The notes under the pieces were generated by a model that had not been told where the DNA came from, did not search any database, and saw only the letters and a program-made list of their open reading frames with translations. DNA of 32,000 nt, from contig NC_014537.1 in assembly GCF_000148385.1 (NCBI RefSeq), positions 360,001 through 392,000 on the forward strand, given 5' to 3'. Numbering within the stretch: position 1 is the first letter of the stretch; each line of letters starts with the position of its first letter. The stretch comes from Vulcanisaeta distributa DSM 14429. Lineage in GTDB: Archaea; Thermoproteota; Thermoprotei; Thermoproteales; Thermocladiaceae. A program made the position numbers and the translations under genes. Of the stretch, positions 5,582-30,645 are shown one piece after another.

Positions 5582-5658
5582 TTACTTCGTTTGTTAAAAC
5601 CCATATTTAATGTGTGAATGTTAGAAATGTGTTGTTGGGTATAATGATTACACCACCT

Positions 5659-6387
5659 TTAGGCATTATTACCCTCATTACCAATTGTAATACCGTAAAT
5701 AACCTGAATCTGCTCAAGTAAGTCATTAACAATGAATCTAAGTATTTCGGAACCAACCTCAGGCCTTACGAGGTCCCTACGTAGCGAACCAATAACGCCC
5801 GTCTCACTAACGTCAATAGTCCTAAAAATGTTTATGTTACCGCTAACCTCAATATCAGTAACCCTATCCCACCTAACAAGGTCCTTACTTATTGCGGCGA
5901 TCAATGATGTCTCAACAGCATCGGCATGCCCAAAGGATGGGAAGTACCTCGTTATGTAATCAACGACCCTCTTATTATATATGTAATAATGATAAGCCCT
6001 GGGCCTAACCCTTGAGTAATTCCACTCCTTAACAACAATGGTTAGTGCATCAACGTTACCGCCATGCCCATTAACAAACACAATCCCAACAGGGCTCCAC
6101 GCAGATACGCTCTCGATAAAGTCGAGAAGGTAGTGGATTAGGCTTTCAAAGCGAACCCACGTTGTGCCCACGAAGCCCGCATGCTCCATTGAGGAGCCAA
6201 CAGCAATTAACGGGTAGAGCAAGGCCTTATTTTGCATTTTGCGTTCAACCTCAGCGGCGATATAATTAGCGATTATTGAGTCGGTGCCCAGGGGTAAGTG
6301 AGGCCCGTGTTGCTCTATGGATCCGACCGGCACGATGATTAAAGGATCCTTAGGTACTTCATCACGTGTTATTTCCAATATCCTCAC
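5659..6387 (-). CDS. Creatininase-family amidohydrolase (creatinine amidohydrolase / ArfB-like)
   Basis: Family motifs are present: SIEQHGPHLPLGTD and VNGHGGN. Confidence 0.75.
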   Translation of the reverse strand: MRILEITRDEVPKDPLIIVPVGSIEQHGPHLPLGTDSIIANYIAAEVERKMQNKALLYPLIAVGSSMEHAGFVGTTWVRFESLIHYLLDFIESVSAWSPVGIVFVNGHGGNVDALTIVVKEWNYSRVRPRAYHYYIYNKRVVDYITRYFPSFGHADAVETSLIAAISKDLVRWDRVTDIEVSGNINIFRTIDVSETGVIGSLRRDLVRPEVGSEILRFIVNDLLEQIQVIYGITIGNEGNNA

Positions 6388-6914: not shown

Positions 6915-6993
6915 TGGTGCGGCCGCCGGGATTCGAACCCGGGTTCTGCGGCTCGGCAGGCCGCCATCCTAGACCAGGCTAGACTACGGCCGC
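6915..6993 (-). tRNA. tRNA-Gly (anticodon GCC), 3' CCA encoded, no intron
   Basis: The reverse complement is GCGGCCGTAGTCTAGCCTGGTCTAGGATGGCGGCCTGCCGAGCCGCAGAACCCGGGTTCGAATCCCGGCGGCCGCACCA. It folds with acceptor GCGGCCG/CGGCCGC, anticodon arm GCGGC-CTGCCGA-GCCGC and T arm CCGGG-TTCGAAT-CCCGG. The D-stem has one mismatch. Confidence 0.9.
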
Positions 6994-10899: not shown

Positions 10900-11889
10900 G
10901 TGAGGCTTGTTAGGGTTGAGGATGCGATTGGGCAGGTGCTTGGCTATGACACGACCTACGTGGGTAGGGATGGGGCAACGGTATTACTGCCCAGGGGCCA
11001 CGTGATCACTAGGGATGATGTTGAGAAGCTGAAGGACTCTGGCGTCTACTTTGTCTGGGTTGAGGGTAATGAGGAATCGAGCGACTTAATGTATGAGTGG
11101 GAGATTGCCGAAACAGTGGCTAGGGCGGTGGCTGGGGAGAATACGTACATCAAACCAGCTAGGCAGGGCTCGGCTTGGATCATGTCCAGCGTTAATGGTG
11201 TGCTTAAGGTCGATATACACGGCTTAACCGAGCTAAACCTGGGTGGTAACGTTCTCCTGATTACTAGGCAGGGCATGAGTGGTGTTGTTAAGGATGAATT
11301 GGTTGGTATTATTGACGTGATACCGCTCAGCATGAGGAGGAGCGAGGTTGAGGAATTACTGAGGTATAGGAATTTAATTAGTGTCGTGCCGTTTAGGAGG
11401 AGGAAGATTGGCATTGTCATCACGGGTACTGAGATTTACCAGGGTAGGAAGAGGGACCTTTACTACCCAGTGATTAAGGCTAGGGCCGATAAATACGGCT
11501 GGGAAGTGACATTCAACACAGTGGTGCCTGATGACGAGGATAAAATAATGAATGCCGTGAAGGAAGCCATAAGCAATGGTGTGGAGGCCATAGTGATTAC
11601 AGGTGGTATGTCCGTGGACCCAACGGATAAGACACCAAATGCAATAAGGAGACTCGGGGCTAGGGTCATAGCCTATGGAGTGCCCATTAAACCGACCACA
11701 ATGACCATGATAGCCATGCTCGATAATACACCAATACTCGCAATCTCCGCCGGAGGAATATACTACAGCGACTACAACGCCATTGACATATTCCTACCAA
11801 GACTAATGGCAGACCTAATACCAAGTAGGGAGGAAATAGCTGCAATGGGCCACGGAGGAATACTGCCGAATTACAGGCCCCATCATTAA
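10900..11889 (+). CDS. Molybdopterin-binding (MoaB/MogA/MoeA-type MoCF) domain protein
   Basis: GTG start. The C-terminal half has the MoCF-biosynthesis fold pattern (IGIVITGTEI...VITGGMSVDPTDKT). The N-terminal domain is unassigned. Confidence 0.6.
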   Translation: MRLVRVEDAIGQVLGYDTTYVGRDGATVLLPRGHVITRDDVEKLKDSGVYFVWVEGNEESSDLMYEWEIAETVARAVAGENTYIKPARQGSAWIMSSVNGVLKVDIHGLTELNLGGNVLLITRQGMSGVVKDELVGIIDVIPLSMRRSEVEELLRYRNLISVVPFRRRKIGIVITGTEIYQGRKRDLYYPVIKARADKYGWEVTFNTVVPDDEDKIMNAVKEAISNGVEAIVITGGMSVDPTDKTPNAIRRLGARVIAYGVPIKPTTMTMIAMLDNTPILAISAGGIYYSDYNAIDIFLPRLMADLIPSREEIAAMGHGGILPNYRPHH

Positions 11890-12317
11890 ACGGTAATGCC
11901 AAGTGCATTAAATACGCTAGTCACTATGTCCCTAGCCCTATGCGCCATGGACAAAGCCCTCGCGGCAATCTCACGGTTATAAATCATTCCAGGTGTTAAG
12001 CCAGCCGTCGGCTCACCATAGGTCGAGCGTGCATGCTCAGCAGCTAACTCATGGCTCATCCTGGCTAATTCAATGATCAACTCCTTAACACTACCTGGTA
12101 CTTGACTTATGATGCTCATTAATTGGTTTAATGGATCGTGGCTCCATGTTGGTACCTGGTAAATCGCAATAATGGCCTTCGCAAAATTCTCAACCGCCAA
12201 TTGTGAAGAATGTACACAACCGGCCCAATCATCAAGCTCATAATACCTCTCGGCCCTACTTAAATGCTCGTTAGCTAACTCATATCTATATTTAACTTCA
12301 TTCATTGGGTCTATCAT
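11886..12317 (-). CDS. HEPN-domain protein, putative toxin partner of the upstream MNT
   Basis: All-alpha protein of 143 aa with a HEPN-like pattern (AERYYELDDWAGCVHSSQLAVENFAKAII ... EHARSTYGEP). It overlaps the nucleotidyltransferase gene by 4 nt. Confidence 0.7.
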   Translation of the reverse strand: MIDPMNEVKYRYELANEHLSRAERYYELDDWAGCVHSSQLAVENFAKAIIAIYQVPTWSHDPLNQLMSIISQVPGSVKELIIELARMSHELAAEHARSTYGEPTAGLTPGMIYNREIAARALSMAHRARDIVTSVFNALGITV

Positions 12318-12775
12318 ATTATCCTAACCCTCTCTAGGGGCTTTGGCAATACCCAATAGTAGGCTTTACCATCTCTAATCCTCCTGAGGCCGCTCTCAAC
12401 TATCCTGCGCCTAACTTGTTCTAGGAATTCGTTCAATTTGCCTGTCCTGTCCAGGAGGACCATGGCGTCCCAGTAAATGTTTAGTAATAATGGCGTGATA
12501 ATACCTGGGTTGAGGAACTCGTTAATGTCCATATCAATGACTGTCAATGGATAATCACGAAGTAGGGCGCTAATGGCCAGGTAAACAGCCCTCCTCCGCT
12601 TAACACGGTCGATCCTACCCAAGCCGCTGTGAAGCACCAGTAAATCAACGTCACTATACTCATCAGCCTCACAACGGGCCAGGGAACCAAAGAGGAGCAC
12701 GGCCATGAAACTACCACCCACTAACCTGCTTAGCTTAGCCCTCACGTCATTGATGACGGCTTGGCAGTTAATCAT
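12314..12775 (-). CDS. Minimal nucleotidyltransferase (MNT, Pol-beta superfamily), putative antitoxin
   Basis: Carries the motif LFGSLARCEADEYSDVDLLVL (GS-x10-D-x-D). Confidence 0.8.
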   Translation of the reverse strand: MINCQAVINDVRAKLSRLVGGSFMAVLLFGSLARCEADEYSDVDLLVLHSGLGRIDRVKRRRAVYLAISALLRDYPLTVIDMDINEFLNPGIITPLLLNIYWDAMVLLDRTGKLNEFLEQVRRRIVESGLRRIRDGKAYYWVLPKPLERVRII

Positions 12776-12886
12776 TATCGCGATATTATTGACCTAATCC
12801 TTAAAATCCCTTACGGCCCTACCGGCTAATGATTTTAAGGCATGGTCTTAGGAAGAACGCTTTATAAGTTTAGGTACAAACTATTA

Positions 12887-13372
12887 ATGAATGACATGGA
12901 GGAATTGATTAGAATGGCTGAGGAACGTGGCATAGATGTTGAGGACTTAATAATAAATGCCATAAGGAGTAGAAGCAAGGATCCATTAGAGTCAATACGA
13001 TTAAGGATTGAGTTGGCCAGAAAATTTATTACAGAAGCTAGGGAAAGGCTAAACACTGGTGATTCAATACAGGCCAGTGAGAAGGCATATAAGGCGGCTG
13101 AGGAGGTTGTTAAGGCCTTGGCCGAGAAATTCAACATACCCGAGTATCAGCAAGCAATTAAGGAGGGCAGGTGGTATACCCATCAATTAAGTTCCGCAGC
13201 TAGTAAGCTATCAAGGACATTAGGTAATTGGGTATTAAACGGCTGGAGTAGTGCATACCTACTTCATGTCTGGGGTTTCCACGAGGCCAAGTTGAGCGCT
13301 GATGACATAGTTGGTTATGTCAATGAGGTTGAGAGAATGGTTAAGGAGGCCGAGAAGTTATTAACGCATTAA
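12887..13372 (+). CDS. PaREP1/PaREP8-family protein (paralog 1)
   Basis: The track ORF starts at 12842. ATG 12887 (MNDMEELIRMAEERGIDVEDL...) aligns with the start of paralog 15248..15727, which it closely resembles along its whole length. It shares the motif QASEKAYKAAEE..KALAE and HVWGFHEAK. Confidence 0.75.
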   Translation: MNDMEELIRMAEERGIDVEDLIINAIRSRSKDPLESIRLRIELARKFITEARERLNTGDSIQASEKAYKAAEEVVKALAEKFNIPEYQQAIKEGRWYTHQLSSAASKLSRTLGNWVLNGWSSAYLLHVWGFHEAKLSADDIVGYVNEVERMVKEAEKLLTH

Positions 13373-13432
13373 ATTTGGGATTAAATATGTAAAATAAAGC
13401 ATTTTTAAGGTTGGTCATTAAATGACATAGCC

Positions 13433-14113
13433 GTGGCATTATTTGGTTGGGTTGGGAAGGTGTTATACGTTAACTTAAGTAATGGTAAGATCTGGGTGGA
13501 GACCGTTGGGGAGGATGTTTATGATAAGGTGCTTGGTGGTGAAGGGCTCGCCGCTTACATAATTTACAAGCGCTTCAGGGAGATAAAGGGCCCGCTTGAC
13601 CCATCAAACATTCTCGTGTTCGCATCCGGGCCTTTAACGAGTGATATCATCCCACAGAGTGGTAGGGTGTCTATAGGGTTCATATCGCCATTGACTGGGA
13701 TATGGGGTTCAACCCACGTGGGCACTAGGTTTGCGTATGAATTGAAGAGGGCTGGTCTTGATGCCGTGGTTGTGATGGACAGGGCCGAGAAACCGGTCTA
13801 CATATACATTGAGGAGGGGCAGGCGGACATTAGGGATGCCGGTAAGTACTGGGGTCTCGATATAATAGAGACTGTGAACGCCCTAAGGAGGGACCTTAAC
13901 GACCAGTCAATTAAGGCGTTAGCCATTGGACCCGCTGGGGAGCACTTGGTTGAGTTCTCGACGATAGCGAATGAGGAGGGTATTGGCGGTAGGGCTGGCG
14001 GTGGCGCTGTCATGGGTAGTAAGAACCTAAAGGCTATTGTTGTTAAAGGTACTAGGCCCATTGAGTACGCATATTCTGAGGAATTGAGGAGGTATGTACA
14101 TTGGTGGCTTTAG
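13433..14113 (+). pseudogene. aor: Aldehyde:ferredoxin oxidoreductase, N-terminal domain only (truncated)
   Basis: GWVGKVLYVNLSNG...GGAVMGSKNLKAIVVKG matches the AOR N-terminal domain, which is about 210 aa. The roughly 400-aa tungstopterin/FeS-binding domains are absent, and the ORF stops at TAG 14111..14113. Confidence 0.7.
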
Positions 14114-14704
14114 TTATAAGGACATTGAGGGTGCGCCGCCGCATAGGCTCGTTAAGGAGTACGGCATGATGCAAATAAGCTTTGGGAAAATCTGAAGAAT
14201 TTCCTTGAGTATATCGTGCCGCTTGCTGAGCAGAGGGGTGTTTACCTGGCTATGCATCCTGATGATCCGCCAATACCTGAGTTTAGGGGTGTGCCTAGGA
14301 TCATGAATAGTGTTGAGTCCTTCGAGAAGTTGGTTAGCCTTGTTAGGAGCGAGCATAATGGCATTACCTTCTGCATGGGTAATTTCACGCTCATGACTGA
14401 TGACGTGCCTGGAGCCGTTAGGAGGTTGAAGGATAGGATTTACTTCGTCCACTTCAGGGATGTGAAGGGTGATAGGTATAATTTTGTTGAGACATTAATT
14501 GGTGAGGGTAAGACTGACCTAGTCGGAGCCGCCAGGGCGATGCTTGAGATAGGTCATGAATGGTATATAAGGGTTGATCGCACACCAACTCTTGAGGGTG
14601 ACACCGAATTGGGTGCCGCGGGCTATAATTACCTCGGTAGGCTCTACACGATTGGTTATATTAAGGGTTTGTTCACGGCCGTGGCTAAGCAAATGAATAA
14701 ATGA
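14114..14704 (+). pseudogene. uxuA: Mannonate dehydratase, C-terminal half only (truncated, probably also frameshifted near its 5' end)
   Basis: [46 protein letters not shown]...RIYFVHFRD matches the C-terminal part of UxuA. There is no N-terminal half. A UxuA-like YKDIEG at 14115 is in a different frame. Confidence 0.65.
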
Positions 14705-14729
14705 TTAGGTATTAAGTTGTTAAAATTTA

Positions 14730-15206
14730 TTAAATTCTATTCTTCAATCTATCCCTTATGAAGTTAATAACCTCGACTACGTCCTTCCTTACCAATTCCT
14801 CGCTTGAGTACCTCGACACTTCGCTATCTCTATCAAGACCGTTGTACTGAAATTCGTGCAAATTTAGAGCTATTTCTACGTAGAGCCTGAGCTCCTTATC
14901 GCCTATTATTGAGGCCACTTCCCTGAGCCTTGAGCTTGGCATAACGGCTATTAACCAATCAACCCTATCAACCACCTTATTCGGACCCAACCTCCTAACA
15001 CCTGGATAATGCTTCGTTAATTCCTCCCTATAATCAACGGCTAGCCCGGCTACGTAGGCCTTAATAGCCTGAAATGCCTTACCAGCCGCATTTCTTAATA
15101 ACCCATTCTGAAGAAATCTCTCGGCAAGTTCGGCTTCGTAGAACGCCTCCCTGAACCTATCCTCCTGGTACCTCCTTGCGTCTATCCAGGGCTTTGTAAC
15201 CTCCAT
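14730..15206 (-). CDS. PaREP1-like protein (paralog 2, divergent subtype)
   Basis: All-alpha protein of 158 aa with AELAERFLQNGLLRNAAGKAFQAIKAYVAGLA, the same helix motif as the other three paralogs. It lies in tandem with 15248..15727. Confidence 0.65.
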   Translation of the reverse strand: MEVTKPWIDARRYQEDRFREAFYEAELAERFLQNGLLRNAAGKAFQAIKAYVAGLAVDYREELTKHYPGVRRLGPNKVVDRVDWLIAVMPSSRLREVASIIGDKELRLYVEIALNLHEFQYNGLDRDSEVSRYSSEELVRKDVVEVINFIRDRLKNRI

Positions 15207-15247
15207 GAATACTCAGCAGTATAGTCGGTGCAGGTTAAATTAAATCC

Positions 15248-15727
15248 TTAGGTCCCGAGGGCCTTCTTGGTGTTTGTTACTAGGTTTTCAACGAGCCTTA
15301 GGTAATTCGATAAGTCACCCACGCTAAACTTAGCCTCATGAAAGCCCCAGACATGAAGTACGTAGCCAGCTGCCCAACCCGTCGCAACCCAATCACCAAG
15401 TATTGAGGCAAGGGTGTTACTAGCCATGCCGAGTAGATACGTGTACCACCGACCCTCCTTAATAGCCTGCTGGTGCTCAGGTATATTATATCTCTCGGCT
15501 AGAGCCTTGATGCACTCCTCAGCGGCTTTATATGCCTTCTCGCTGGCTTGCACGGCATCACCCTTCCTCACATATTCCTTAGCCTCATTTAGATATTTCT
15601 CGGCGAGTTCAAGCCTAATCCTAATAGCGGTTGATGGGTCGCTCCTGCCAATGGCGCTTATTAAGAGATCAATTATGTCTATACCCTTTTCCTCGGCCGC
15701 CTTAATTAACTCCTCGGGTATTTCCAT
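15248..15727 (-). CDS. PaREP1/PaREP8-family protein (paralog 3)
   Basis: Aligns over its full length with 12887..13372 (GIDIIDLLISAI..., QASEKAYKAAEECIKALAERYNIPEHQQAIKEGRWYT, HVWGFHEAK). Confidence 0.75.
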   Translation of the reverse strand: MEIPEELIKAAEEKGIDIIDLLISAIGRSDPSTAIRIRLELAEKYLNEAKEYVRKGDAVQASEKAYKAAEECIKALAERYNIPEHQQAIKEGRWYTYLLGMASNTLASILGDWVATGWAAGYVLHVWGFHEAKFSVGDLSNYLRLVENLVTNTKKALGT

Positions 15728-15751
15728 TATGCAATTTTTAAATCCCTATTT

Positions 15752-16580
15752 TTATTTACCTAACTTTATCACCGGCGTTCTTTGCGTCCCTAGCTTTGTT
15801 ATTGATATTTCGACTATGTCGCCATGAATTAGGGTTATGGGTCTTGGTGGTATTATTGCTGTCCCTGTTGATAGTAATGTTCAGTCAGGAACAGTATTAT
15901 TCCTGATTAAATACTTTATTTGTTCCTCAATTTTTCCTCCTCATCTTAGACGTGCTTATGCTACCCTCAAATATTACTGAGCCACCCCTTATTATCCTCA
16001 TGCTGATGGTTAAGTTGTATGGATTACCAACCTCATCAGGCGTCACTAGGAATGGCCCAATGGCGCAGGATCCATTATAAATCTTCGACTGTGGCAGGTA
16101 AAGTAGGTTTTGAGCCTCCAAGTCCCTTGCCGATACATCGTCACTAATTGTATAAGCCAATACTTTACCGCTTGAGTCTATCACAACGCCAAGTTCAGGC
16201 TCAGGTAGTGTCCACTCAGAGTCGCTCCTGATGGTTATTGGTTCGCCATGGCCAACGCACCTATTTGCCGTGCCCTTAAAGAAGATCTCCGGCCTCTCCG
16301 CATCGTAAACAAGCTCATATATTGTCCTTCCTCTTATCATGGCCACGTCCTCCTCACTATACCTAGCCCTGGCAACCTCATAGACTATACCGCTATCCCA
16401 CACCTCTAATGGGTCGTAAGGCTTCGTGAACCTAAGCCCCCTATACGTGTAATCCCTAGCCAATAACTCATTAACGTTGATATTAACCTCAGGGCCAAGT
16501 GGTACCTCCTTACCTTCTGAGTGGAGTTTTAGTGCTGTGATTGGGTCGCTTAGTAATACGTAAACCCTGTCATTAATCAT
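15752..16580 (-). pseudogene. kdaD: 2-keto-3-deoxy-pentonate dehydratase (KdaD-type, FAH family), disrupted by one frameshift and one in-frame TGA
   Basis: Track ORF 15927..16580 ends ...SKMRRKN*. Removing one A from the A5 run (15931..15935) gives MRRKIEEQIKYLIRNNTVPD, then TGA at 15881..15883, then TLLSTGTAIIPPRPITLIHGDIVEISITKLGT... to TAA 15752..15754. The whole reading is collinear with the Sulfolobus KdaD family, as recalled from memory. Confidence 0.7.
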
Positions 16581-16728
16581 TACGAAGTTCCCTACCTAAC
16601 CACCGTTGATGAGTCTGAAGATTTTCATACATTCACTATGAATTTCAGAGCCATTTATGCATTATATATAACATGGTTTAATTGCGTGATGCGTTAAGCT
16701 AATTTTCTGCCACCATTACCTTTACCTA

Positions 16729-17199
16729 ATGCAGAGCCTATTGGAATTATTAAGTGAGATTGCCAAGAAGAGGGACTTAAGCCCTGAGCTCTATTTGGCT
16801 GAGTTAATAAGTAGGGATTTAGATCCTAAGGATCGGGTAAGTATTTATTTGAAGATTCACAGTGAATTACTTAACGAGGCTGAGAAGGAATACGCGGATA
16901 ATGACCTTGTGCAGGCCGGCGAGAAGTATTGGGGTGCCGTGGTGGCGTTACTTAATGCCATTGCCGAATTAAAGGGTTGGGAGCACTTCAGTCATAGGGA
17001 TTATGCAATAATAATTGAGAGGCTCGCTGATGAGTTTAATGACGATGAATTAAGGACCTTATTTGACTCCGTAGAGAAACTTCATGCAAATTTTTACCAT
17101 AACTTTCTTGATAGGAGTGGCTTTAATTTACGTAGAGATAGGGCCCTTGCACTTATTAAAAGACTGAGTGAGTACATGGCAAGGTTAAAGGGTGACTAA
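16729..17199 (+). CDS. PaREP1-like protein (paralog 4, divergent subtype)
   Basis: All-alpha protein of 156 aa with the motif QAGEKYWGAVVALLNAIAE and LHANFYHNF. Confidence 0.6.
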   Translation: MQSLLELLSEIAKKRDLSPELYLAELISRDLDPKDRVSIYLKIHSELLNEAEKEYADNDLVQAGEKYWGAVVALLNAIAELKGWEHFSHRDYAIIIERLADEFNDDELRTLFDSVEKLHANFYHNFLDRSGFNLRRDRALALIKRLSEYMARLKGD

Positions 17200-21712: not shown

Positions 21713-22714
21713 TTAAGGTTTAATAAGTATCTTCCCAATCCTGGAATTATTTCTCATAAATTCCAACGCATCACCGAACCTCTCTAATGGGTAAGTAGCA
21801 GCTATCACAGGCTTAACCAAACCCTTACTCAGTATTTTGAGGGTTTCAGCTACGTCAGACCTATTCGACCTAACATTACCAATCATCACTACGTCCTTCA
21901 TAATCAGATAGCCAAGCCTTAATTGGTATGTCTCGTCAGGGTTCACATTACCAATAATTATTACACGACCTCCAGAGCGTAGGCTCCTTAATGATTCCTC
22001 AATCGTCGGCGTACCCACAGCCTCAATTACCATGTCCGCGCCAAGGCCGTTCGTTAAATCCTTAACAACCTTACTAAACCTCTGCTCGGTAACAACATCA
22101 TCCGCAAACTGCCTAATGAACCTGGCCTTATCTGGGGATCTCGTGACGGCTATTACCCTGGCGCCCAGGGCCTTGGCTAATTGAACCGCGTGAATACCAA
22201 CACCGCCACTTGCCCCGGTCACAACCACGGTCTCCCCATACGTCAACCCTGCCCTTTTGAGACCCTTATAAACCATGGCTATGACGCAGGGTGTGAATGC
22301 AGCTAGCTCGTCAGGAACTCCATTGGGCACCTTAACCAGTGCATTACCTGATACCCTGGCATACTCTGCAAAGAATCCGTTAACATTCTCACCATAACTA
22401 AGCGCATTGATGCAGTATGAGTCAAGACCGCGCATGCAGAATTCACAGGTTCCATCGGGCTCGTGGAGTAGTGGTACAACCCTATCACCTGGCTTGAACC
22501 TGGGGTCCTTTGATTCTACCACAACGCCGACAGCCTCATGACCCAAGATGACGGGGTACTTCATGCGTGGGTAATAGCCAGCCAATTGAAGTAGGTCGCG
22601 GTAGCACAGTGCCGCGTAACTTATCTTTATCAGGACATCACCATCATTAAGTCTTGGCATTGGTACATCACGCACCTCGTACTTACCCCTCTCATAAACA
22701 ACAACTGCCCTCAT
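21713..22714 (-). CDS. Zinc-binding alcohol dehydrogenase family (MDR) oxidoreductase
   Basis: AALCYRDL, LGHEAVG, the structural-zinc lobe CEFCMRGLDSYC and GASGGVG are all present. Confidence 0.8.
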   Translation of the reverse strand: MRAVVVYERGKYEVRDVPMPRLNDGDVLIKISYAALCYRDLLQLAGYYPRMKYPVILGHEAVGVVVESKDPRFKPGDRVVPLLHEPDGTCEFCMRGLDSYCINALSYGENVNGFFAEYARVSGNALVKVPNGVPDELAAFTPCVIAMVYKGLKRAGLTYGETVVVTGASGGVGIHAVQLAKALGARVIAVTRSPDKARFIRQFADDVVTEQRFSKVVKDLTNGLGADMVIEAVGTPTIEESLRSLRSGGRVIIIGNVNPDETYQLRLGYLIMKDVVMIGNVRSNRSDVAETLKILSKGLVKPVIAATYPLERFGDALEFMRNNSRIGKILIKP

Positions 22715-22767
22715 TAATTGATAGTGGGATTACTGCATTTTAAGGAATTCCCTGAAAAACCAACTAC

Positions 22768-23568
22768 TCATCCCCTAAGCTCTACCCTGGCCATTTCATA
22801 ATCACTGGGTTTCATATTGTATAATTCATCAATTAGATTCACCTTTAATGATGCAGGTCCTGAGGATTTCCTCTCGGCCTTCTCAGCGGCTATCTCGAAC
22901 GTGACCAAGCCCTCCACGGAGGCAATTAGGAAGTCCCTATTCACCGCCATGAAGCTCGCGATCACGGAGCCAACCATGCAGCCACTACCCGTTATGTACT
23001 GTAGCATTGGTGTTCCGTTACTGACTATTGCGACCCTCTTACCGTCAGATACGTAATCCCTCGGCCCCGTAATCACGGCCGTAACGCCATACTCCCTAGC
23101 CAACCTCTCAGCAATCTCGGGACTGGCCTCGCCCAGTGAGTCCACGCCCTTAATCATACCGGCAACGCCCGCCAGAGCCATCATCTCACCGCCATTCCCC
23201 TTAAGCACGCCGACCTCAACCTCATCGAGTATCCTAAGCACGGTCTCGGTCCTAAACCTAGTAGCGCCAGCGCCAACTGGGTCTAGGAGCACAGGCACGT
23301 TATTCCTACTTGCAGCCTTACCAGCCAGTATGAAGGACTCAACCCACCTATCATCGAGCGTACCAATGTTTATATACAAAACATCAGCCTTAGCCGCCAA
23401 CTCCTCAACCTCCTCCCTGGCATGGGCCATTATTGGCGATGCACCAACGGCAAGGGTTACGTTTGCGGCATCATTCATAACCACGTAGTTCATTAGATGG
23501 TGAACTAGGGGTCTCTTCCTCCTAATGGCCTGCAAATCATCCCAATAATTGATCATTGATTGACTCAA
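22768..23568 (-). CDS. thiM: Hydroxyethylthiazole kinase
   Basis: Collinear with ThiM (PLVHHLMNYVVMNDAANVTLAVGASPIMAH, NIGTL, LDPVGAGAT, ITGSGC). Confidence 0.85.
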   Translation of the reverse strand: MSQSMINYWDDLQAIRRKRPLVHHLMNYVVMNDAANVTLAVGASPIMAHAREEVEELAAKADVLYINIGTLDDRWVESFILAGKAASRNNVPVLLDPVGAGATRFRTETVLRILDEVEVGVLKGNGGEMMALAGVAGMIKGVDSLGEASPEIAERLAREYGVTAVITGPRDYVSDGKRVAIVSNGTPMLQYITGSGCMVGSVIASFMAVNRDFLIASVEGLVTFEIAAEKAERKSSGPASLKVNLIDELYNMKPSDYEMARVELRG

Positions 23569-23722
23569 TAACGCAATAATTAATAAGTATTAATAATGTT
23601 ATTCATTAATTAAGAAAAATGCTTCATGAAGGCTCCCTGCAATACACGTTAATTCTTATTATATACTTATTGCGTGTAATGTCATTAAGGTTTATTAATT
23701 CATTAGTGAAACACTATAAGGG

Positions 23723-24625
23723 ATGAGTAGAAACCTTAAGGATGAGTTTTTGCGTTTGTTGAGGGAGGATGAGGTTTTTAGGTTGGCGGTAATAGGGTTC
23801 TTGGGTATTTCTGATGTTCAGTCTTCGCTTAGGCAGTTGGTGAGTGTTGTTAGTGATTTAACGAGGACTGTTCAGAGGCTTGTTGAGGGTCAGGAGAGGC
23901 TTTGGGAGGAGAATAATAAGTTGTGGCAGGAGGTTAGGAGGCTTGCAGAGGGCCAGGAGGCCCTTAGGACCGACGTAAGTAAACTCTGGGAGGAAAACAA
24001 CAAGATTTGGCAGGAGATCAAGGCGCTCCGCGAGAATCAAGAGAAGCTTTGGGAGAACCAAAACAAACTATGGCAGGAAGTCAAGGCACTCAGGGAGGAG
24101 CAGGAGAGGAGGTGGCAGGAGAATGAGAGAAGATGGGAAGAGAATAATAGGAGGTGGGAGGAGGCGTATAAGAGGTTTGAGGTTATTGAGACTGAATTGA
24201 GGAATTTGAGGGAGGACTTTAATAAGTCCATGGCAGCCATTAACAGGAGGTTAGACGCGTTGGGTGCCAGGTGGGGTGTTATTTCTGAGGAGGCGTTTAG
24301 GGAGGGTATGAAGGGTGTTATTGAGAGGATACTTGGTACTGCCAAGGTTGAGAAGTGGACGTATAATGATACCAATGGTGAGGTTTATGGGCATCCTGCG
24401 ATTGTTGATGTGGATCTGGTGATTAGGGATAATGTGCACGTGCTTGTTGAGGTTAAGTCGAGCATTTCCAGGGGCGATGTTGCGGAGTTCTGGAGGGTTG
24501 GAAGGCTTTATGAGAGGGTTAATGGTGTTAAGCCTAGGCTTGTGATGATCTCGCCATACGTTGATGATAAAGCCATGGAGCTCGCCAGGGAGTTGGGTAT
24601 TGAGGTTTATACTAACGTTACGTGA
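23723..24625 (+). CDS. Coiled-coil (LW-heptad, DUF3782-like) protein with a C-terminal PD-(D/E)XK-like domain, twin A
   Basis: 300 aa. Residues 52-184 form an unbroken heptad register (RLWEENN KLWQEVR ...). The C-terminus contains IVDVDLVIRDNVHVLVEVKSS, a D...E-x-K pattern. The first 125 codons are shared with 26105..27076. Confidence 0.75.
   Translation: MSRNLKDEFLRLLREDEVFRLAVIGFLGISDVQSSLRQLVSVVSDLTRTVQRLVEGQERLWEENNKLWQEVRRLAEGQEALRTDVSKLWEENNKIWQEIKALRENQEKLWENQNKLWQEVKALREEQERRWQENERRWEENNRRWEEAYKRFEVIETELRNLREDFNKSMAAINRRLDALGARWGVISEEAFREGMKGVIERILGTAKVEKWTYNDTNGEVYGHPAIVDVDLVIRDNVHVLVEVKSSISRGDVAEFWRVGRLYERVNGVKPRLVMISPYVDDKAMELARELGIEVYTNVT
23736..24098. repeat. Left arm of a perfect 363-bp inverted repeat (partner 26707..27069)
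   Basis: A base-by-base comparison against the reverse complement of 26707..27069 found no mismatch. Identity stops abruptly at 24099 and 26706. Confidence 0.9.
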
Positions 24626-24788
24626 GAACACCCATTAATAATTATGACCGCATATCACTTAATCGCTAAGTGCCTATGATGAGTTATTGGAGAGTGATCA
24701 ATGAGTTTATTGATATATGATACAGTTATTTATTTGCCTTCGGCACTTACCTCTGTTATGTTAAAAGTTTCGATGGGTTGAAGAAGTA

Positions 24789-25112
24789 ATGCTTATTAAT
24801 TGCCTTTTCATGTGGAATTTAATGAATAGGGATAAGGCGATTGGCATTGGGTTGCTTGTGATATCAGTAGTGATTATACTCGCCTACATATACCTGACCT
24901 TCTTCACACCATACACAACATTGGTTCTTCAAATAACGGATACACTAATAATAATAGTGGTCTTTGGAATACTCGCCTGGGTAGGCTACGCATTAGCCAC
25001 AACACCACCACCAAAGCCTATTGAGGAGATTGAGAAGGAGATTGAGGCTGAGCTTAAGAAACTTGAGGAGGAGACAAAGCAGGAACAACAAAAGGCCCAG
25101 CAACAGCAGTAG
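24789..25112 (+). CDS. Small membrane protein: two predicted TM helices plus a charged E/K/Q-rich tail
   Basis: The hydrophobic segments are GIGLLVISVVIILAYIYLTFF and LIIIVVFGILAWVGYALA. They are followed by TTPPPKP and EEIEKEIEAELKKLEEETKQEQQKAQQQQ. The start is probably ATG 24822 (MNRDKAIG...). Confidence 0.55.
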   Translation: MLINCLFMWNLMNRDKAIGIGLLVISVVIILAYIYLTFFTPYTTLVLQITDTLIIIVVFGILAWVGYALATTPPPKPIEEIEKEIEAELKKLEEETKQEQQKAQQQQ

Positions 25113-25472
25113 TCCATGCAAGCCAAGAACCGATTTAAAAGCAGTAACAACCCGGTAGAACTCCATCAATAATCCACAATGCATTCCTATGGACTAGCCA
25201 GGAATTGTTCCTCCCTGTGAAATTGGCAGTAATAGCACGGGTGTATTAATCAAGGCATTAAGCGGTGAGGTATCTCGACACCAATCAGTTAAGGCGTTTG
25301 AAAGTAAGGTTTTTCAGGAAGCCGGGCTCTGCATTATAAAGCCACCATGAGGTCTGTTTTAAGAGCTGGAATTGAGGGACGAGCAACACCAATTAATGGT
25401 GTGGTAACGATGGTTAATACTGAGCATGCTACGGGGTTGGTTACCATGAAAGCATTAAGTACGTGCCCATAG

Positions 25473-26099
25473 GTGCCGGTAATGGTCCATGATAGGATAT
25501 GCCTATTCGGACCCGATGGGTCCGGTAAGAGCACGCTGGCCAGGTTGCTCGCCCAATACCTGGCGAGGGGTGATTACGTTAGGATTTCCTGGGTCAGGGG
25601 CTCACACATGGCTGCGTCACTGCTGGCTAGGTTTTTGGCATTATTCCCAAGCATGAGGGGAGTTGATAATCCTTATTACGGAATTTCAATACCGAAAAAC
25701 CTGAGGCCCCTTTGGTGGTTCCTGGAATTCATATCAGTACTACCCAATTGGTTCTTCAGGTTCATAATGCCCAGCATTTACGAGACTGTGATTGGCGAGA
25801 GGGGGCTCCTGGACTTCCTGGTTTGGGTCTGCGTAACCACCGAGCCAGGCTTCCTCAAGACGCTGTGGGGAAGGGCGACACTGGCGTTGGCGCTTAAGCA
25901 TTGCAGAAATGTGTTTATAATCGCCGACCTCAAGACCCTAATCAGGCGTAAAGGCCGTGAACCGACTGCTAGGACATTACCGAGGCAGTGGGTAATATAT
26001 AATGCATTGGCTAAGTCGCTTAACCTAATCAGTGTGGATACAAGCAGTGATACTCCCATTCAGTCTCTAATTAAGTTAATAAGCGAATTAGGCATGTAA
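25473..26099 (+). CDS. P-loop NTPase / nucleotide-kinase-fold protein with a hydrophobic insert
   Basis: Has Walker A LFGPDGSGKST and a Walker-B-like NVFIIAD. The track start is GTG 25473, and ATG 25482 is more likely. The central segment LRPLWWFLEFISVLPNWFFRFIMP is strongly aromatic. Confidence 0.65.
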   Translation: MPVMVHDRICLFGPDGSGKSTLARLLAQYLARGDYVRISWVRGSHMAASLLARFLALFPSMRGVDNPYYGISIPKNLRPLWWFLEFISVLPNWFFRFIMPSIYETVIGERGLLDFLVWVCVTTEPGFLKTLWGRATLALALKHCRNVFIIADLKTLIRRKGREPTARTLPRQWVIYNALAKSLNLISVDTSSDTPIQSLIKLISELGM

Positions 26100-26104
26100 A
26101 ATCA

Positions 26105-27076
26105 TCAAATACCCGGTGAATTCCTCTCCCTACCAGACTCAAGGAACCAAATACCAAGCCTATTGGCCTCCTCGACTGCCCCCGGCATTGCCCTTAGGCA
26201 GTAAATGACCTTAATTACCCTGCCGGGGAATTTGTCTGGCATTGCCCTGATGGCCTCATCAATCTTCTCAGCAACCCTCCTAACAGTGTTGGGGCTAGCC
26301 CTCGTCTTAGCCTCGCCGACTATCGTCAACCGCCCATCGGTACCATAAACATCAAACTCAAACCTAGCATTCAAATGCGTAGGCCTGGTCTCCACCACGA
26401 CACCTCTCTGCCTAAGGAAGTACTGAACCACCTCATTGGCCTCCTCCTCAATCGACAAAGTCACATGCTCCAAAGTCCTCCTAATACCCCTCAACTCCCT
26501 CCAAATCTTATTATTCTCCTGCCATAGTTTTTCTATGTTTTCGTTTATTCTCCTTATCTCCTGCCATATCCTATTGTTCTCCTGCCATAGCCTCTCCTGG
26601 CCTTCGTGTAGGGCTCTGATTTCCTGCCAAATCCTCTCGATATTCTCATTAATCCTCCTATTCTCCTCCCATAGCTTATTGACGTCTACCCTCAATGCCT
26701 CATAACCCTCCCTGAGTGCCTTGACTTCCTGCCATAGTTTGTTTTGGTTCTCCCAAAGCTTCTCTTGATTCTCGCGGAGCGCCTTGATCTCCTGCCAAAT
26801 CTTGTTGTTTTCCTCCCAGAGTTTACTTACGTCGGTCCTAAGGGCCTCCTGGCCCTCTGCAAGCCTCCTAACCTCCTGCCACAACTTATTATTCTCCTCC
26901 CAAAGCCTCTCCTGACCCTCAACAAGCCTCTGAACAGTCCTCGTTAAATCACTAACAACACTCACCAACTGCCTAAGCGAAGACTGAACATCAGAAATAC
27001 CCAAGAACCCTATTACCGCCAACCTAAAAACCTCATCCTCCCTCAACAAACGCAAAAACTCATCCTTAATACTCAC
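26105..27076 (-). CDS. Coiled-coil (LW-heptad, DUF3782-like) protein with a different PD-(D/E)XK-like C-terminal domain, twin B
   Basis: 323 aa with a GTG start. It has 24 consecutive heptads without a register break (residues 50-217). The C-terminus contains FEFDVYGTDGRLTIVGEAKT, a D...E-x-K pattern. Confidence 0.75.
   Translation of the reverse strand: MSIKDEFLRLLREDEVFRLAVIGFLGISDVQSSLRQLVSVVSDLTRTVQRLVEGQERLWEENNKLWQEVRRLAEGQEALRTDVSKLWEENNKIWQEIKALRENQEKLWENQNKLWQEVKALREGYEALRVDVNKLWEENRRINENIERIWQEIRALHEGQERLWQENNRIWQEIRRINENIEKLWQENNKIWRELRGIRRTLEHVTLSIEEEANEVVQYFLRQRGVVVETRPTHLNARFEFDVYGTDGRLTIVGEAKTRASPNTVRRVAEKIDEAIRAMPDKFPGRVIKVIYCLRAMPGAVEEANRLGIWFLESGRERNSPGI
26707..27069. repeat. 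Right arm of the perfect 363-bp inverted repeat (partner 23736..24098)
   Basis: Its reverse complement is identical to 23736..24098 at every position checked by eye. Confidence 0.9.
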
Positions 27077-27535
27077 ATTGAATTATTATTGCAAATCAAA
27101 TATAAACTTACCGCAAAGACAGCACCTCTTAATGAGAATATCCATCCATGCGATCGAATCTAGGTTATTAATTAATGATTAGCGGCATGATGCTGTACTA
27201 CCTCATTAAATTCCACTAATCATTAGGTTCCATGAATCGATTAAGATCACGATTAAAGAGTGCACAAGGGCCTGGGGATTGCGATACATAAAATGTAAGG
27301 AGCTTACGTGATGAGTAAGAGTATACGTAACTCACTTTAGGACACCAAGTTAGGTGCTCTTTCTTAATTAATGCTATGAAGGCCATTTAACGCTTCGATC
27401 ATCGAGACTCATGTAGATGGCATTTAACATGAGAATAGGAGGGGGTCCTGGTCGTCAATGTGAATATGGATAGGAAGACATTGGAGAAAATTAAGTAACT
27501 TGAAGTGATGATGAAGCGAGTGTCTGATTGTTTGT

Positions 27536-28144
27536 TCATATTACTGTTGATATTGCCCAGAATATCACTAGGGCTATTAATGTTGGTATTAATGCCTTGG
27601 TAATGCCCGTTCCGTAAACCCTGGCGAATATGTAGGCTAGGAGTAATGAACCCACCACTACAAAGGCCAGGCTAACCGTCAGTACCATTGGTTCGCTTAA
27701 AATGCTGTGGTGCGTCGCCACTGCATTAATTGAGTATTCAAGGAGTGGTGTTGTCGCTGTTATTGCCGTCTGGACCACACTCACGTAGAAGTAATTCCCA
27801 CTAAGTAGCCAGGTATCCATGAAGCCCGCGTTTATCCTGAAGGCCCTTAGCAGCGCCATGAGTACCGCAGCCTCTATCAACCAACCAATAACCAAGCCCA
27901 CCAGAGTCGTTATTGGCATTATGGCTTTTATAAACGAAATAAAGCCCGATATATCACCCTGGCTTATAGTCACCCCCTCACTGCTTAATTGCGCCTCGAT
28001 TTGATGAATGAATATTGGCGTTATTGCTGGTATGAGTATGTAGGTTACATATAGGTAGGTGGCTATGACCGCTATGATGAAACCGACAATCCCCGTAATC
28101 CTCAACAAGGACTTAATATTCATTAACAACGTACTTATAATCAA
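27536..28144 (-). CDS. Polytopic integral membrane protein (about 5 TM), co-oriented with the ABC ATPase
   Basis: Multiple long hydrophobic segments. It lies 22 nt downstream of the ATPase gene. The family is not recognised, though it may be Yip1-like. Confidence 0.55.
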   Translation of the reverse strand: MIISTLLMNIKSLLRITGIVGFIIAVIATYLYVTYILIPAITPIFIHQIEAQLSSEGVTISQGDISGFISFIKAIMPITTLVGLVIGWLIEAAVLMALLRAFRINAGFMDTWLLSGNYFYVSVVQTAITATTPLLEYSINAVATHHSILSEPMVLTVSLAFVVVGSLLLAYIFARVYGTGITKALIPTLIALVIFWAISTVI

Positions 28145-28166
28145 TTATTAATGCATTACTTCCAGC

Positions 28167-28889
28167 CTATATGGCAGTTAACTCCCTAATTAATTGCTCA
28201 AGGCTCTCACGTACCTGTGGGACTTCGTAGGTCCTCGTTATTACGCCGTCGCTTATCCTAGAGACCTTGTGGCAGTTACCTATTAACTCGAGGTTGTGTG
28301 TTACCATGACTATGGTCATGCCGAGCTCCCTATTCAATTTCCTGAATATTTCCATGATTATGGCCGCGGTCTTACTATCAAGGTTGCCAGTGGGTTCATC
28401 AGCCAGTAGGAGCCTTGGCCTGGCCACTATCGCCCTGGCAATGGCCACCCTCTGCTGCTCACCGCCACTAAGCTCATTAGGCCTCCTCCTGGCCTTATCC
28501 CTAAGACCAACCATCTCAAGGGCCTCAAGGGCTAGTCTCCTCCTTTGGCTTGGATCCACGCCCCTGGCTATTAACGGTAACTCGACGTTCTCGAGCACGG
28601 TCATCCTAGGTATTAAGTAGTATAGTTGGAATACGAAGCCCACGAACTCATTCCTATACCTATCAAGCTCCGCATTACCAAGCCTATGCAATTCGTAAGG
28701 CCCAACCCTAAGGTAACCCCTACTAACCCTGTCTAAACCACCTATTAGGCTGAGTAGGGTCGTCTTACCACTACCACTAGGCCCAACTATACATCTAAAC
28801 TCACCCTCATTAATCTCCAGGTTCACACCACGGAGTGCTGGGTAATCACCGTAGTACTTCCACACGTCCCTAGCCTCAATGAACGACAC
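28167..28889 (-). CDS. ABC transporter ATP-binding protein (MacB/LolD-type, COG1136-like)
   Basis: GTG start. Walker A GPSGSGKTT, the signature LSGGEQQR, Walker B LLLADEPTGNLD and the H-loop VTHN are all present. Confidence 0.9.
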   Translation of the reverse strand: MSFIEARDVWKYYGDYPALRGVNLEINEGEFRCIVGPSGSGKTTLLSLIGGLDRVSRGYLRVGPYELHRLGNAELDRYRNEFVGFVFQLYYLIPRMTVLENVELPLIARGVDPSQRRRLALEALEMVGLRDKARRRPNELSGGEQQRVAIARAIVARPRLLLADEPTGNLDSKTAAIIMEIFRKLNRELGMTIVMVTHNLELIGNCHKVSRISDGVITRTYEVPQVRESLEQLIRELTAI

Positions 28890-29013
28890 ACGGGTTACTA
28901 CGGCACCTCTTTAAAATACATACTCACCAAGCATTCATATATTGAACATCATAGTAATAATACCTTTGTAAAGAGAGTATGGTTTATAAGGGTACTCGCG
29001 GTCTCAAGACCCG

Positions 29014-30645
29014 ATGTCGAAAATGATAACTAATAGGCATATACTTGTAATAACCATGGCTGTACTGGCCCTGCTGGCTTTAATACCCTTGGCACAGGCG
29101 CAGCAGTACTCAAACACGGCACCACCCTTCTCGATAGTCAGCATATCATCAACACCATCACCAACAATTACGGGGATCTCTAAGGTATCAATAACCCTAA
29201 TATACACAGGCGGTTATTACCTATACAACACTGAGTTCTCCCTAACACCCTGCAGCGGCGCTGTGGTTTCACAAAACCCGGTATTCATTGGCTGGTTAAA
29301 CCCTGGTCAGGAGGTCACAGTAACTTACCTAATAAACTCAACATTACCCATTAACTGCCAATCCACGCTAACCATAAGCTGGGGTGCCGAGTACGAGACA
29401 TCACCAAGGGCTCAGGTGACCACATATATACAGGTGGCGGGCTCAGGCTCAATGAACATAAATTTCCCACTGGTCGTTTATGGCTCGCCGATAATCACGG
29501 CATACACCAAGACCCAGTACCTAGTTAGTAATCTTGTTAATCCCGTGGAGCTCGTGATTAGTAATAATGGTAGTGGGCCCATCTATGACTTACAGGCTAA
29601 CGTGGGGATTGAGGGCGCCACATTAGCCGCAGGCTCAAACACGTTGATAATTGGTACGTTAAATCCAGGGAGCAACTACACCACGACACTGTATGTATTA
29701 CCGACGGGCAGTGGCCCCGTAACAATGACAATAGGTTACTCAGGACTTGATCAAAACGGTAATGTGGTCAGTGGGAGTATTTCAATAAGCATGGGCGTCA
29801 CCACAGTATCCTCAAGCCAGGTCATTGTTTACCCAGTGAATTCCTCGCTAAGCATCGGCTCTGGTAGGTTGGTCATTGGTATTAGGAACGTGAACCCCGT
29901 GACCATCTACAACGTGACCCTAGTCATAGCGTCAACCCAGGGACTAAGCCTAGCGGGTAGTACGGCCTATGATATTGCCGAGATACCGCCTGGTTCAACG
30001 GATTACGTCTATGTACCTGTCGCCGTACCAATAACCTCATCCTCAGCATCAATAACATACTCACTGACATACCAATACGCCGGTGGATACCCAGGTAGTA
30101 TTCAGGGCGCCATGACCCTCTCCGTGCTTAACCAACCATCAATACTAGTAACCGGTTACCAAGTGGCCCCAACGCCATTAACAATCGGCGAGACGGGCTC
30201 CGTGTCGCTGAACTTCGTTAACACCGGTCCAGTGCCGGCCTACAACCTAAACATAACCGCAATACCAGGCCCTGGCATTAAGATTATTAGTCAATCAAGC
30301 ACGTACATGGGCACACTAAACTCCCAGCAGTTGAGTGCCGTGGCCTTCAGCTTCAGCGTTACTAGGGTGATGAACACCACCATAACCTTCCAAATACAGT
30401 ACACGGACCAATTCGGTCAACAGCACGTGCAGTATTACACGGTGCCGATAACCGTGGTTAGGAACGCAACATTGTTTATACAGTCATCCTCCCAGGTGGG
30501 TCAGCAGGGCACAGTCATCAATTACTATAGGTTCCACAGGACTAACTACTTCACCTACGTAATAATTGCGTTGGCTGTGGTTGCCGTGGCCATAATAATC
30601 ACCGTGGTTCTGCTTCTGCGTAGGAGGCATGGTGGTTCCACATGA
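29014..30645 (+). CDS. Secreted, C-terminally membrane-anchored multi-domain surface protein (CARDB / COG1361 S-layer-domain-like beta-sandwich repeats)
   Basis: The signal peptide is ILVITMAVLALLALIPLAQAQQ. The motif x-(L/I)-x-PG-x recurs in Thr/Ser/Val-rich modules (LNPGQEVTVTY, LNPGSNYTTTLYV, IPPGSTDYVYV). There are at least eight N-x-S/T sequons. The C-terminal TM is followed by RRRHGG. Confidence 0.65.
   Translation: MSKMITNRHILVITMAVLALLALIPLAQAQQYSNTAPPFSIVSISSTPSPTITGISKVSITLIYTGGYYLYNTEFSLTPCSGAVVSQNPVFIGWLNPGQEVTVTYLINSTLPINCQSTLTISWGAEYETSPRAQVTTYIQVAGSGSMNINFPLVVYGSPIITAYTKTQYLVSNLVNPVELVISNNGSGPIYDLQANVGIEGATLAAGSNTLIIGTLNPGSNYTTTLYVLPTGSGPVTMTIGYSGLDQNGNVVSGSISISMGVTTVSSSQVIVYPVNSSLSIGSGRLVIGIRNVNPVTIYNVTLVIASTQGLSLAGSTAYDIAEIPPGSTDYVYVPVAVPITSSSASITYSLTYQYAGGYPGSIQGAMTLSVLNQPSILVTGYQVAPTPLTIGETGSVSLNFVNTGPVPAYNLNITAIPGPGIKIISQSSTYMGTLNSQQLSAVAFSFSVTRVMNTTITFQIQYTDQFGQQHVQYYTVPITVVRNATLFIQSSSQVGQQGTVINYYRFHRTNYFTYVIIALAVVAVAIIITVVLLLRRRHGGST

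Follow-up and report, generated by a model that had tools for sequence, protein, structure and literature searches.

We analysed a stretch of 32,000 nucleotides from Vulcanisaeta distributa DSM 14429 (NC_014537.1, positions 360,001 to 392,000; hereafter the window), in which two convergent genes, called A and B here, share an identical 5′ part and bracket a gene for a small membrane protein and a gene for a P-loop NTPase (Table 1). Genes A and B lie tail-to-tail with their 5′ ends outward, so that the module they share forms an inverted repeat. A repeat search of the window delimited two arms of 363 nt each, 100% complementary and separated by 2608 nt, which cover the N-terminal module and the proximal part of a coiled-coil stalk in both genes. 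When the arms are compared in bins of 30 nt, identity is 30/30 all along, with 7-12/30 directly upstream and 6-19/30 downstream. The outer limit of the arms falls at codon 5 of gene A and codon 3 of gene B, and the inner limit at the first base of codon 126 and of codon 124, respectively. A repeat of this length cannot have arisen by chance. An initial annotation of the stretch had described the exact reverse-complement arms, their edges and their codon ranges, all of which we reproduced. It had also described an abrupt end of identity followed by diverged coiled coil, and a BLASTP comparison of A with B indeed returns an identical block and then a diverged coil. Its readings that the NTPase gene stops 5 nt from the stop of gene B, and that the C-termini carry the motifs VDVDLV..VEVK (A) and FDVYG..VGEAK (B), are likewise correct. 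Each arm also contains an antisense open reading frame (ORF), identical in the two arms; these are not likely to be genes and can be put down to the repeat itself and to the biased sequence that encodes the coiled coil.

Table 1. Features of the window and blastn alignments with the orthologous locus L005 of V. distributa JCM 11217 (positions are those of the window unless L005 is named).
Feature	Position	Strand or orientation	Description and source
Left arm of the perfect inverted repeat	23736..24098	+	gene A codons 5-125; repeat search, 30-nt bins
Right arm of the perfect inverted repeat	26707..27069	-	gene B codons 3-123; repeat search, 30-nt bins
Antisense ORF in left arm	23858-24061	-	67 aa
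Antisense ORF in right arm	26744-26947	+	67 aa
Gene A	23723..24625	+	ADN49796.1, 300 aa; ORF list, Pfam, accession by protein-collection match
TATA-like box TTTATTAATTCA	23691..23702	+	~25-30 nt upstream of gene A start, thiM side; sequence, alignment
Gene B	26105..27076	-	ADN49799.1, 323 aa, GTG start; ORF list, UniRef name DUF8196
DUF8196 head of gene B	26108..26461	-	residues 206-323; invariant columns, AF2, Foldseek
TATA-like box TTTATATT (minus strand)	27099..27106	-	~25-30 nt upstream of gene B GTG, membrane-protein/ABC side
2608-bp interior	24099..26706	.	orientation relative to flanks opposite in JCM 11217; blastn
Protein with two transmembrane segments	24789..25112	+	107 aa, charged Gln-rich tail; ORF list
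P-loop protein, predicted thymidylate-kinase fold	25473..26099	+	208-aa ORF, Walker A GPDGSGKST; ORF list
blastn alignment	22005-24098	reverse	L005 12357-10311
blastn alignment	26707-27136	reverse	L005 6361-5933
blastn alignment	27535-29999	reverse	L005 5551-3079
blastn alignment	23764-25111	forward	L005 6027-7408
blastn alignment	25421-27061	forward	L005 9070-10627
HEPN-domain gene	11886-12317		accessory patch 11886-17199
Four PaREP1-family genes	12842-13372, 14730-15206, 15248-15727, 16729-17199		accessory patch
Aldehyde:ferredoxin oxidoreductase, N-terminal fragment	13433-14113		accessory patch
tRNA gene	6918-6993	-	sole Rfam match in the window

The product of gene A consists of an N-terminal helical module, a heptad coiled-coil stalk, a DUF3782 segment (residues 143-225) and a PDDEXK_10 head (residues 228-294). 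Both Pfam models matched above their gathering cut-offs, DUF3782 (PF12644) with E = 1.4e-25 and 89.7 bits against a cut-off of 24.4, and PDDEXK_10 (PF07788) with E = 9.4e-26 and 90 bits against 21.2. The active-site pattern of the head reads VDVD(231)...VE(243)VK(245), its D and E being invariant among 11 aligned heads. More than 1700 homologs were scored, mainly from Thermoproteota, and many of them are labelled ‘PD-(D/E)XK nuclease family protein’. Judged by its sequence, gene A is a full member of the DUF3782/PDDEXK_10 family and encodes a predicted nuclease; the literature searched yielded no nuclease activity data on this family. While the initial annotation recognised no described system at this locus, the families involved are known. 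Indeed, DUF1626/COG5493 (now PDDEXK_10) was placed in the PD-(D/E)XK superfamily in 2007, when its N-terminal coiled coil and the replacement of the active-site Lys by Thr in some family members were already noted (PMC1913061), and the crenarchaeal coiled-coil stalks of the ‘prokaryotic endonucleases’ family were discussed in 2016 as oligomerisation elements (PMC4786415). Gene A resembles the crenarchaeal proteins of this family in its coiled coil, its DUF3782 segment and its D..ExK head. Paired inverted copies or head exchange are not described in the DUF3782/PDDEXK_10 literature searched, whereas both are present here. An exact-sequence look-up of the full gene A protein gave no match in an index built on short-read contigs; these break at the arms, so that neither A nor B is recorded there at full length.

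Gene B begins with the same N-terminal module, continues with a longer coiled coil and ends in a DUF8196 head. In UniRef the exact protein is named ‘DUF8196 domain-containing protein’, and PF26618 (DUF8196) is precomputed on all 10 close homologs of gene B and on its V. moutnovskia ortholog, which shows 62% identity to gene B over the BLASTP alignment and ~82% in the head (tblastn). Our local Pfam scan of gene B returned coiled-coil noise only, and PF26618 was unmatched for the full protein, for the isolated head and for the V. moutnovskia ortholog. Since the latter is annotated with PF26618 yet went unmatched locally, the local Pfam copy appears to be without that model. A word-indexed search with the gene B head gave 10 relatives, and an exhaustive profile search was needed to gather the family: it places DUF8196 in ~230 representative clusters, mostly C-terminal after 100-250 residues. 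Gene B is thus like other DUF8196 proteins both in name and in the C-terminal placement of the domain behind a stalk.

The fold of the gene B head was addressed by structure prediction. The blocks E240-F-D242 and G254-x-A256-K257 are invariant, with residue 255 being Glu in 5/6 heads and Asp in 1/6, and the motif residues are E210-212, D242 and E255-A-K257, the last two spaced as D-x12-(E/D)-A-K. The AlphaFold2 (AF2) model of the head (predicted local distance difference test, pLDDT, 91.4; predicted template modelling score, pTM, 0.85) has the element order H-E-E-H-E-H-E. Its best Protein Data Bank matches in Foldseek are EndoMS/NucS (5gkj, 5gke and 2vld), with a probability of 0.99-1.0 and a modest template modelling (TM) score of 0.52, and type II restriction enzymes come lower in the list. 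The gene B head is therefore predicted to adopt a PD-(D/E)XK fold, nearest to that of NucS/EndoMS. DUF8196 is elsewhere without a stated function, and the PD-(D/E)XK model for the domain comes from the present analysis. These data bear out the proposal of the initial annotation that both C-termini are PD-(D/E)XK-like, in the case of A by the Pfam match to PDDEXK_10 and in that of B by a modelled nuclease-like fold, its Foldseek matches to NucS/EndoMS and its conserved E..D..ExK residues, acidic and Lys positions included. A profile comparison of the two heads was not significant (probability 0.9%), though their D and ExK motifs line up, and we do not claim sequence homology between them.

Two genes lie between A and B. 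The 107-aa protein with two transmembrane segments is 91-97% identical in strains JCM 11217, JCM 16161 and JCM 16159, and none of the profile libraries scanned, Pfam included, gave a significant family match for it. A 243-aa coiled-coil gene lies between this gene and the NTPase gene in JCM 11217 (L005 7409-9069) and JCM 16161 (L066 6953-7700); the window is without it, ~309 bp at 25112-25420 being unmatched there. The P-loop protein is 100% identical to a V. distributa ‘thymidylate kinase’ entry, and its archaeal homologs share 45-50% identity with it. The database form counts 205 aa, 3 residues fewer than the ORF, which would move the start to 25482, and an exact look-up of the longer, GTG-start form found no match. 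Scores against Pfam and NCBIfam stayed under their cut-offs. The AF2 model (pLDDT 89.3) has dTMP kinases as its top Foldseek matches, with a best TM score of 0.70, so that this NTPase is best described as a predicted thymidylate-kinase-fold protein with a nucleoside monophosphate (NMP) kinase fold and a Walker A motif.

The genomic context of the NTPase gene bears on how the genes between the arms should be read. In a Caldivirga, a Desulfurococcaceae and a Bathyarchaeia genome (L067, L097 and L098), the next gene downstream, in the same direction, encodes a protein of ~288-308 aa, which is an NTP_transf_5 protein in Caldivirga and Bathyarchaeia and has no Pfam match on record in the Desulfurococcaceae genome. 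In all three of these non-Vulcanisaeta genomes the pair sits within glycosyltransferase/polysaccharide-synthesis clusters and the nuclease gene is absent; it looks like a kinase and nucleotidyltransferase pair conserved in archaeal glycan loci. We mapped linkage with marker proteins in 35 loci. In ~29/35, all from Vulcanisaeta genomes or related metagenomes, the NTPase gene is convergent with a nuclease gene carrying the N-terminal module and coiled coil, and where the contig reaches far enough an NTP_transf_5 gene is usually next. In V. souniana, the NTPase is present without a nuclease neighbour. We read this arrangement as a nuclease gene lodged between the two genes of a glycan-related pair and not as a functional cassette, and both the NTPase gene and the membrane-protein gene look like bystander passengers between the arms.

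Comparison with related strains revealed that the interior of the repeat has been inverted. A scan with the shared module over species-representative genomes yielded 59 loci, with no 100% match for DSM 14429 itself. One of them, locus L005 of V. distributa JCM 11217, holds an inverted pair of modules 4.2 kb apart and 73% identical over 195 nt. Its gene order is ABC ATPase, 196-aa membrane protein, A-type gene (+), 107-aa membrane protein, the extra 243-aa coiled-coil protein, NTPase, B-type gene (-), thiM and ADH. In the window, thiM adjoins the A-type gene and the membrane-protein/ABC flank adjoins the B-type gene, whereas L005 pairs them the other way. The blastn alignments follow this exchange (Table 1), and that of the left flank stops exactly at the inner edge of the arm, at 24098. 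In Vulcanisaeta sp. JCM 16161 (locus L066) the interior is oriented as in the window, and a blastn comparison of L066 with L005 recovers the same inversion. Neither of these two loci has a perfect repeat, so the inversion is independent of the assembly of the window. The thiM-side breakpoint in L066 falls at 5644-5729, within the stalk-coding part of the gene.

The starts of the genes indicate what was exchanged. On the thiM side, the gene begins with MSRNLKDEF, MSENLRSEF or MREDLRSEF (pattern MS(R/E)NL(K/R)(D/S)EF in the alignment of gene starts) behind a conserved TTTATTAATTCA box, which keeps its place ahead of this gene in the window as well as in JCM 11217 and JCM 16161 even though the head differs, being of type A in the window and in JCM 16161 and of type B in JCM 11217. 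On the membrane-protein side, the gene starts with MSIKDE behind GGTAAGTTTATATTT both in the window, with its B head, and in JCM 11217, with an A head; the TTTATATT box is likewise kept at this flank in JCM 11217, ahead of the A-type gene there. The upstream region and the first codons therefore track the flank and not the head, and starts that track the flank while heads are swapped are the product expected from a reciprocal exchange inside the shared module. Altogether, the strains differ by an inversion of the interior whose breakpoints fall within the genes, and the pairing of putative promoters with heads is swapped, the promoter role of both TATA-like boxes being suggested by their sequence and position. 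The initial annotation had raised such an inversion, with its swap of promoters between the nuclease modules, as a possibility, and it is now seen between JCM 11217 on one side and the window and JCM 16161 on the other, with breakpoints in the 5′ module.

Some irregularities of the related loci should be mentioned here. Many genes in the draft loci L005 and L066 are split or shifted, often after an extra G (the ABC ATPase, NTPase and B genes of L005, for example). This looks like homopolymer sequencing error, and apparent pseudogenes in these drafts are not trustworthy. In two metagenome loci (L093 5924-8139 and L094 5911-8307), a B-type and an A-type gene form a same-strand tandem that flanks an NTPase fragment of residues 105-202 only, a layout that suggests further rearrangements at this locus.

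The identity of the arms extends to every synonymous site over 121 codons. The arm of the window is a mosaic: over the initial ~60 nt it is similar to thiM-side arms from the other strains, and nt 133-198 are 96% identical to the A-type arm of JCM 11217. The tract of identity starts where homology between A and B begins, the regions upstream being unrelated, and ends where the A-type and B-type stalks diverge. Given that the orthologous arms in JCM 11217 are only 73% identical, the perfect identity seen here points to a recent gene-conversion tract; the most economical reading is a conversion that spanned the entire shared segment and may have accompanied a crossover. Gene conversion was among the explanations offered by the initial annotation, and it draws support from the synonymous-site identity and from the JCM 11217 arms. 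In V. distributa JCM 11216 (locus L008), a 507-bp contig carries the N-terminal module only; it may be a collapsed repeat, in which case the arms would be near-identical in this strain as well.

We consider it probable that these features reflect recombination between paralogs through their shared 5′ module, with conversion of the arms and inversion of the interior both brought about by general homologous recombination rather than by a dedicated enzyme. The host recombination machinery would act on the arms in two ways. A non-reciprocal exchange would recently have overwritten one arm with the other over all the shared homology, leaving 363 bp of identity with sharp edges, while a reciprocal exchange would invert the 2.6-kb interior. 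Each flank would thereby keep its promoter and the first 2-4 codons and gain the other stalk end and nuclease head, and the membrane-protein and thymidylate-kinase-like genes would be carried along as passengers. Both genes would presumably be expressed from promoters of their own. Several points weigh against this explanation. The B gene of JCM 16161 is without the N-terminal module, so the twin arrangement is not kept in every strain. DNA divergence among the compared strains amounts to ~15-23% in the region, and one old inversion plus one recent conversion would therefore suffice. Both orientations were not seen within one strain, and chimeric proteins corresponding to the flipped state of DSM 14429 are absent from a collection of 15 billion proteins, which holds one full assembly of the strain. 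Finally, a few differences between the arms could be masked in an assembly made from 454 reads only and with ‘fake reads’, and the orientation of the interior in DSM 14429 also rests on the finishing process.

These last points raise the question of whether the finishing of a collapsed repeat could account for the perfectly matching arms, for the way the interior is oriented, or for the two together. At 363 bp, an arm is probably near the length of a 454 read, and Logan contigs built from short reads break at the arm. According to the genome report, DSM 14429 was sequenced with 454 Titanium reads and a 22.9-kb paired-end library, assembled with Newbler and phrap at 106x, and finished with consensus-derived ‘fake reads’, repeats being resolved with Dupfinisher (PMC3035369). 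Against such an artefact, the orthologous locus of JCM 11217 holds both genes, each with its N-terminal module, which means that the two copies do exist; the orientation of the window recurs independently in JCM 16161; and paired ends at this coverage should suffice to orient a segment of 2.6 kb. In addition, a Logan contig of run SRR060963 matches the window at 100% from 24069 to 26545. It begins 30 nt inside the left arm, as expected from branching of the graph at the inner edge of the arm if the k-mer is ~31 (the k of the assembler is not stated). Raw reads thus back the exact end of the shared segment, the support from this contig being confined to the final 30 nt of identical arm sequence and to a single junction. 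We find an assembly artefact very improbable. An even less credible proposal, also made in the initial annotation, is that selection on the proteins keeps the N-terminal coils identical for co-assembly of A and B into one stalk with two heads. Identical stalk segments would in principle permit mixed oligomers, and stalks of this kind have been discussed as oligomerisation elements (PMC4786415), but protein-level selection was rejected as the cause of the identity since it cannot fix all synonymous sites over 121 codons, and the N-terminal modules of the same two genes are only 73% identical at the DNA level in JCM 11217. Conversion may allow hetero-oligomers as a side effect, which leaves the repeat itself unexplained.

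A programmed, shufflon-like switch would invert the interior frequently between two differently regulated promoters, its arms being kept identical by selection for flipping. The inversion does exactly exchange the promoter-to-head pairing, homogenisation of the arms is complete, heads are exchanged repeatedly across the family (see below), and the family is listed in PADLOC as the candidate type III CRISPR accessory C3a181. However, we found no recombinase, integrase or invertase domain among the ORFs of the window or the called genes of L066. Each gene has its own start and TATA-like box either way, so that the effect of an inversion is confined to the promoter and 2-4 residues at the N-terminus. 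With the arms diverged to 73% in JCM 11217 and one of them lost in JCM 16161, identity is not maintained across strains, and mixed orientation was not observed. A programmed switch is, in our view, quite unlikely. It is also unlikely, if slightly less so, that the locus is a four-gene defence or conflict cassette in which both nucleases function jointly with the membrane protein and the NTPase, as the initial annotation had suggested. The linkage this reading depends on is seen for all four genes in three genomes of the V. distributa group, the convergent NTPase-nuclease pairing is kept in most of the mapped loci, and the PADLOC model PDLC01085 ‘C3a181’ matches gene A with E = 2e-58 (its positions 48-226 align to the stalk and head of A and 1-117 to the N-terminal module of B), the other PADLOC matches being coiled-coil/P-loop noise. 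C3a181 was, however, defined from 3 occurrences as a low-scoring type III CRISPR accessory candidate and labelled ‘Diadenylate cyclase’ (PMC6546367), a label that looks wrong as the model spans a DUF3782/PDDEXK_10 protein end to end. No defined PADLOC system with its components together was matched at the locus. The window contains neither cas genes nor a CRISPR array, its neighbouring genes are mostly metabolic or transporter genes, and searches of viral contigs and PHROGs gave no real matches to the proteins of the locus. Above all, the cassette was rejected as the leading explanation on the predicted dTMP-kinase fold of the NTPase and on its context outside Vulcanisaeta, where it sits in glycan clusters without the nuclease; moreover, the convergent NTPase and nuclease genes are not co-transcribed, and V. 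souniana keeps the former without the latter.

Recombination between paralogs, the explanation we favour, can be compared with known systems. In the phage Mu G segment, the R64 shufflon and the hsdS shufflons, a dedicated recombinase acts on short specific sites, usually with one promoter and silent cassettes. The locus described here is similar in that its inverted repeats lie in coding sequence and that inversion changes which 3′ module follows a constant 5′ part. It differs in that its arms are 363 bp of paralogous coding sequence with no recombinase nearby, and in that A and B are each complete and, whichever way the interior lies, each has a start codon of its own and a TATA-like box ahead of it. 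Neither an adjacent recombinase nor promoter-less alternative cassettes, the marks of a site-specific invertible element, were found. Bacterial inverted rRNA operons, insertion sequence (IS) copies and tuf genes undergo gene conversion or inversion by general homologous recombination, and with these the locus shares long identical arms, boundaries set by the limits of homology, inversion between strains and the apparent lack of a dedicated enzyme. Unlike in these cases, the exchange point here lies inside two genes with different C-terminal domains, and promoters are re-paired with heads. The locus is thus a known process acting on known though uncharacterised families, and not a new defence system or a new kind of system. 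It nonetheless illustrates, as a clean and dated case from a hyperthermophilic archaeon, the evolution of inverted paralogs: the conversion tract exactly covers the shared module, and the inversion between strains, with its breakpoints in coding sequence, re-pairs promoters and heads. It also warns against reading the bracketed kinase and membrane-protein genes as parts of a system.

The modest new insight concerns the modularity of the family. A and B are paralogs within a multi-copy archaeal family that combines a common N-terminal helical module and a heptad coiled-coil stalk with alternative heads. In Vulcanisaeta genomes, the same module and LWEENNKIWQE-type stalk bear at least four head types, each with a D..E-x-K-like pattern: type A (DUF3782 and PDDEXK_10), type B (DUF8196), type C (EIDAICYDP..GEATIK) and type D (GEFDGYAEVDNKVIAAEVK), the last two without a Pfam match. 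Examples of types C and D are found in L006 (5992-6795), L007 (5914-6942), L011 (5980-6759) and L040 (5833-7065). The gene convergent with the NTPase gene itself carries a B head in V. moutnovskia, JCM 16159, L070 and L085; in L069 and 15 of the loci L071-L089, 16 metagenome loci that are more distant, the head is of type A. Head exchange through the shared module hence appears to be recurrent in the family, and the twin locus shows the mechanism at work. One could speculate further that the N-terminal module and stalk serve as a recombination handle that shuffles heads between loci and promoters without a recombinase, that the locus is actively flipping, and that diversifying selection by viruses or plasmids drives the process; we regard this extension as doubtful. 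In practice, a widespread archaeal family built from a common module and stalk with interchangeable nuclease-like heads gives reason to study the heads separately, and DUF8196 gains a predicted PD-(D/E)XK fold.

Elsewhere in the window, the Rfam search matched only a tRNA gene (Table 1); at the locus itself Rfam and promoter/terminator scans returned nothing, the sigma-70 scan being irrelevant for archaea. Among the mostly metabolic and transporter neighbours, one accessory patch stands out, with a HEPN-domain gene, four PaREP1-family genes and an oxidoreductase gene fragment (Table 1). Some archaea have operons that combine PaREP1 genes with genes for DUF1626 nucleases (PMC3710099), and in the window the PaREP1 patch lies 6.5 kb from gene A.

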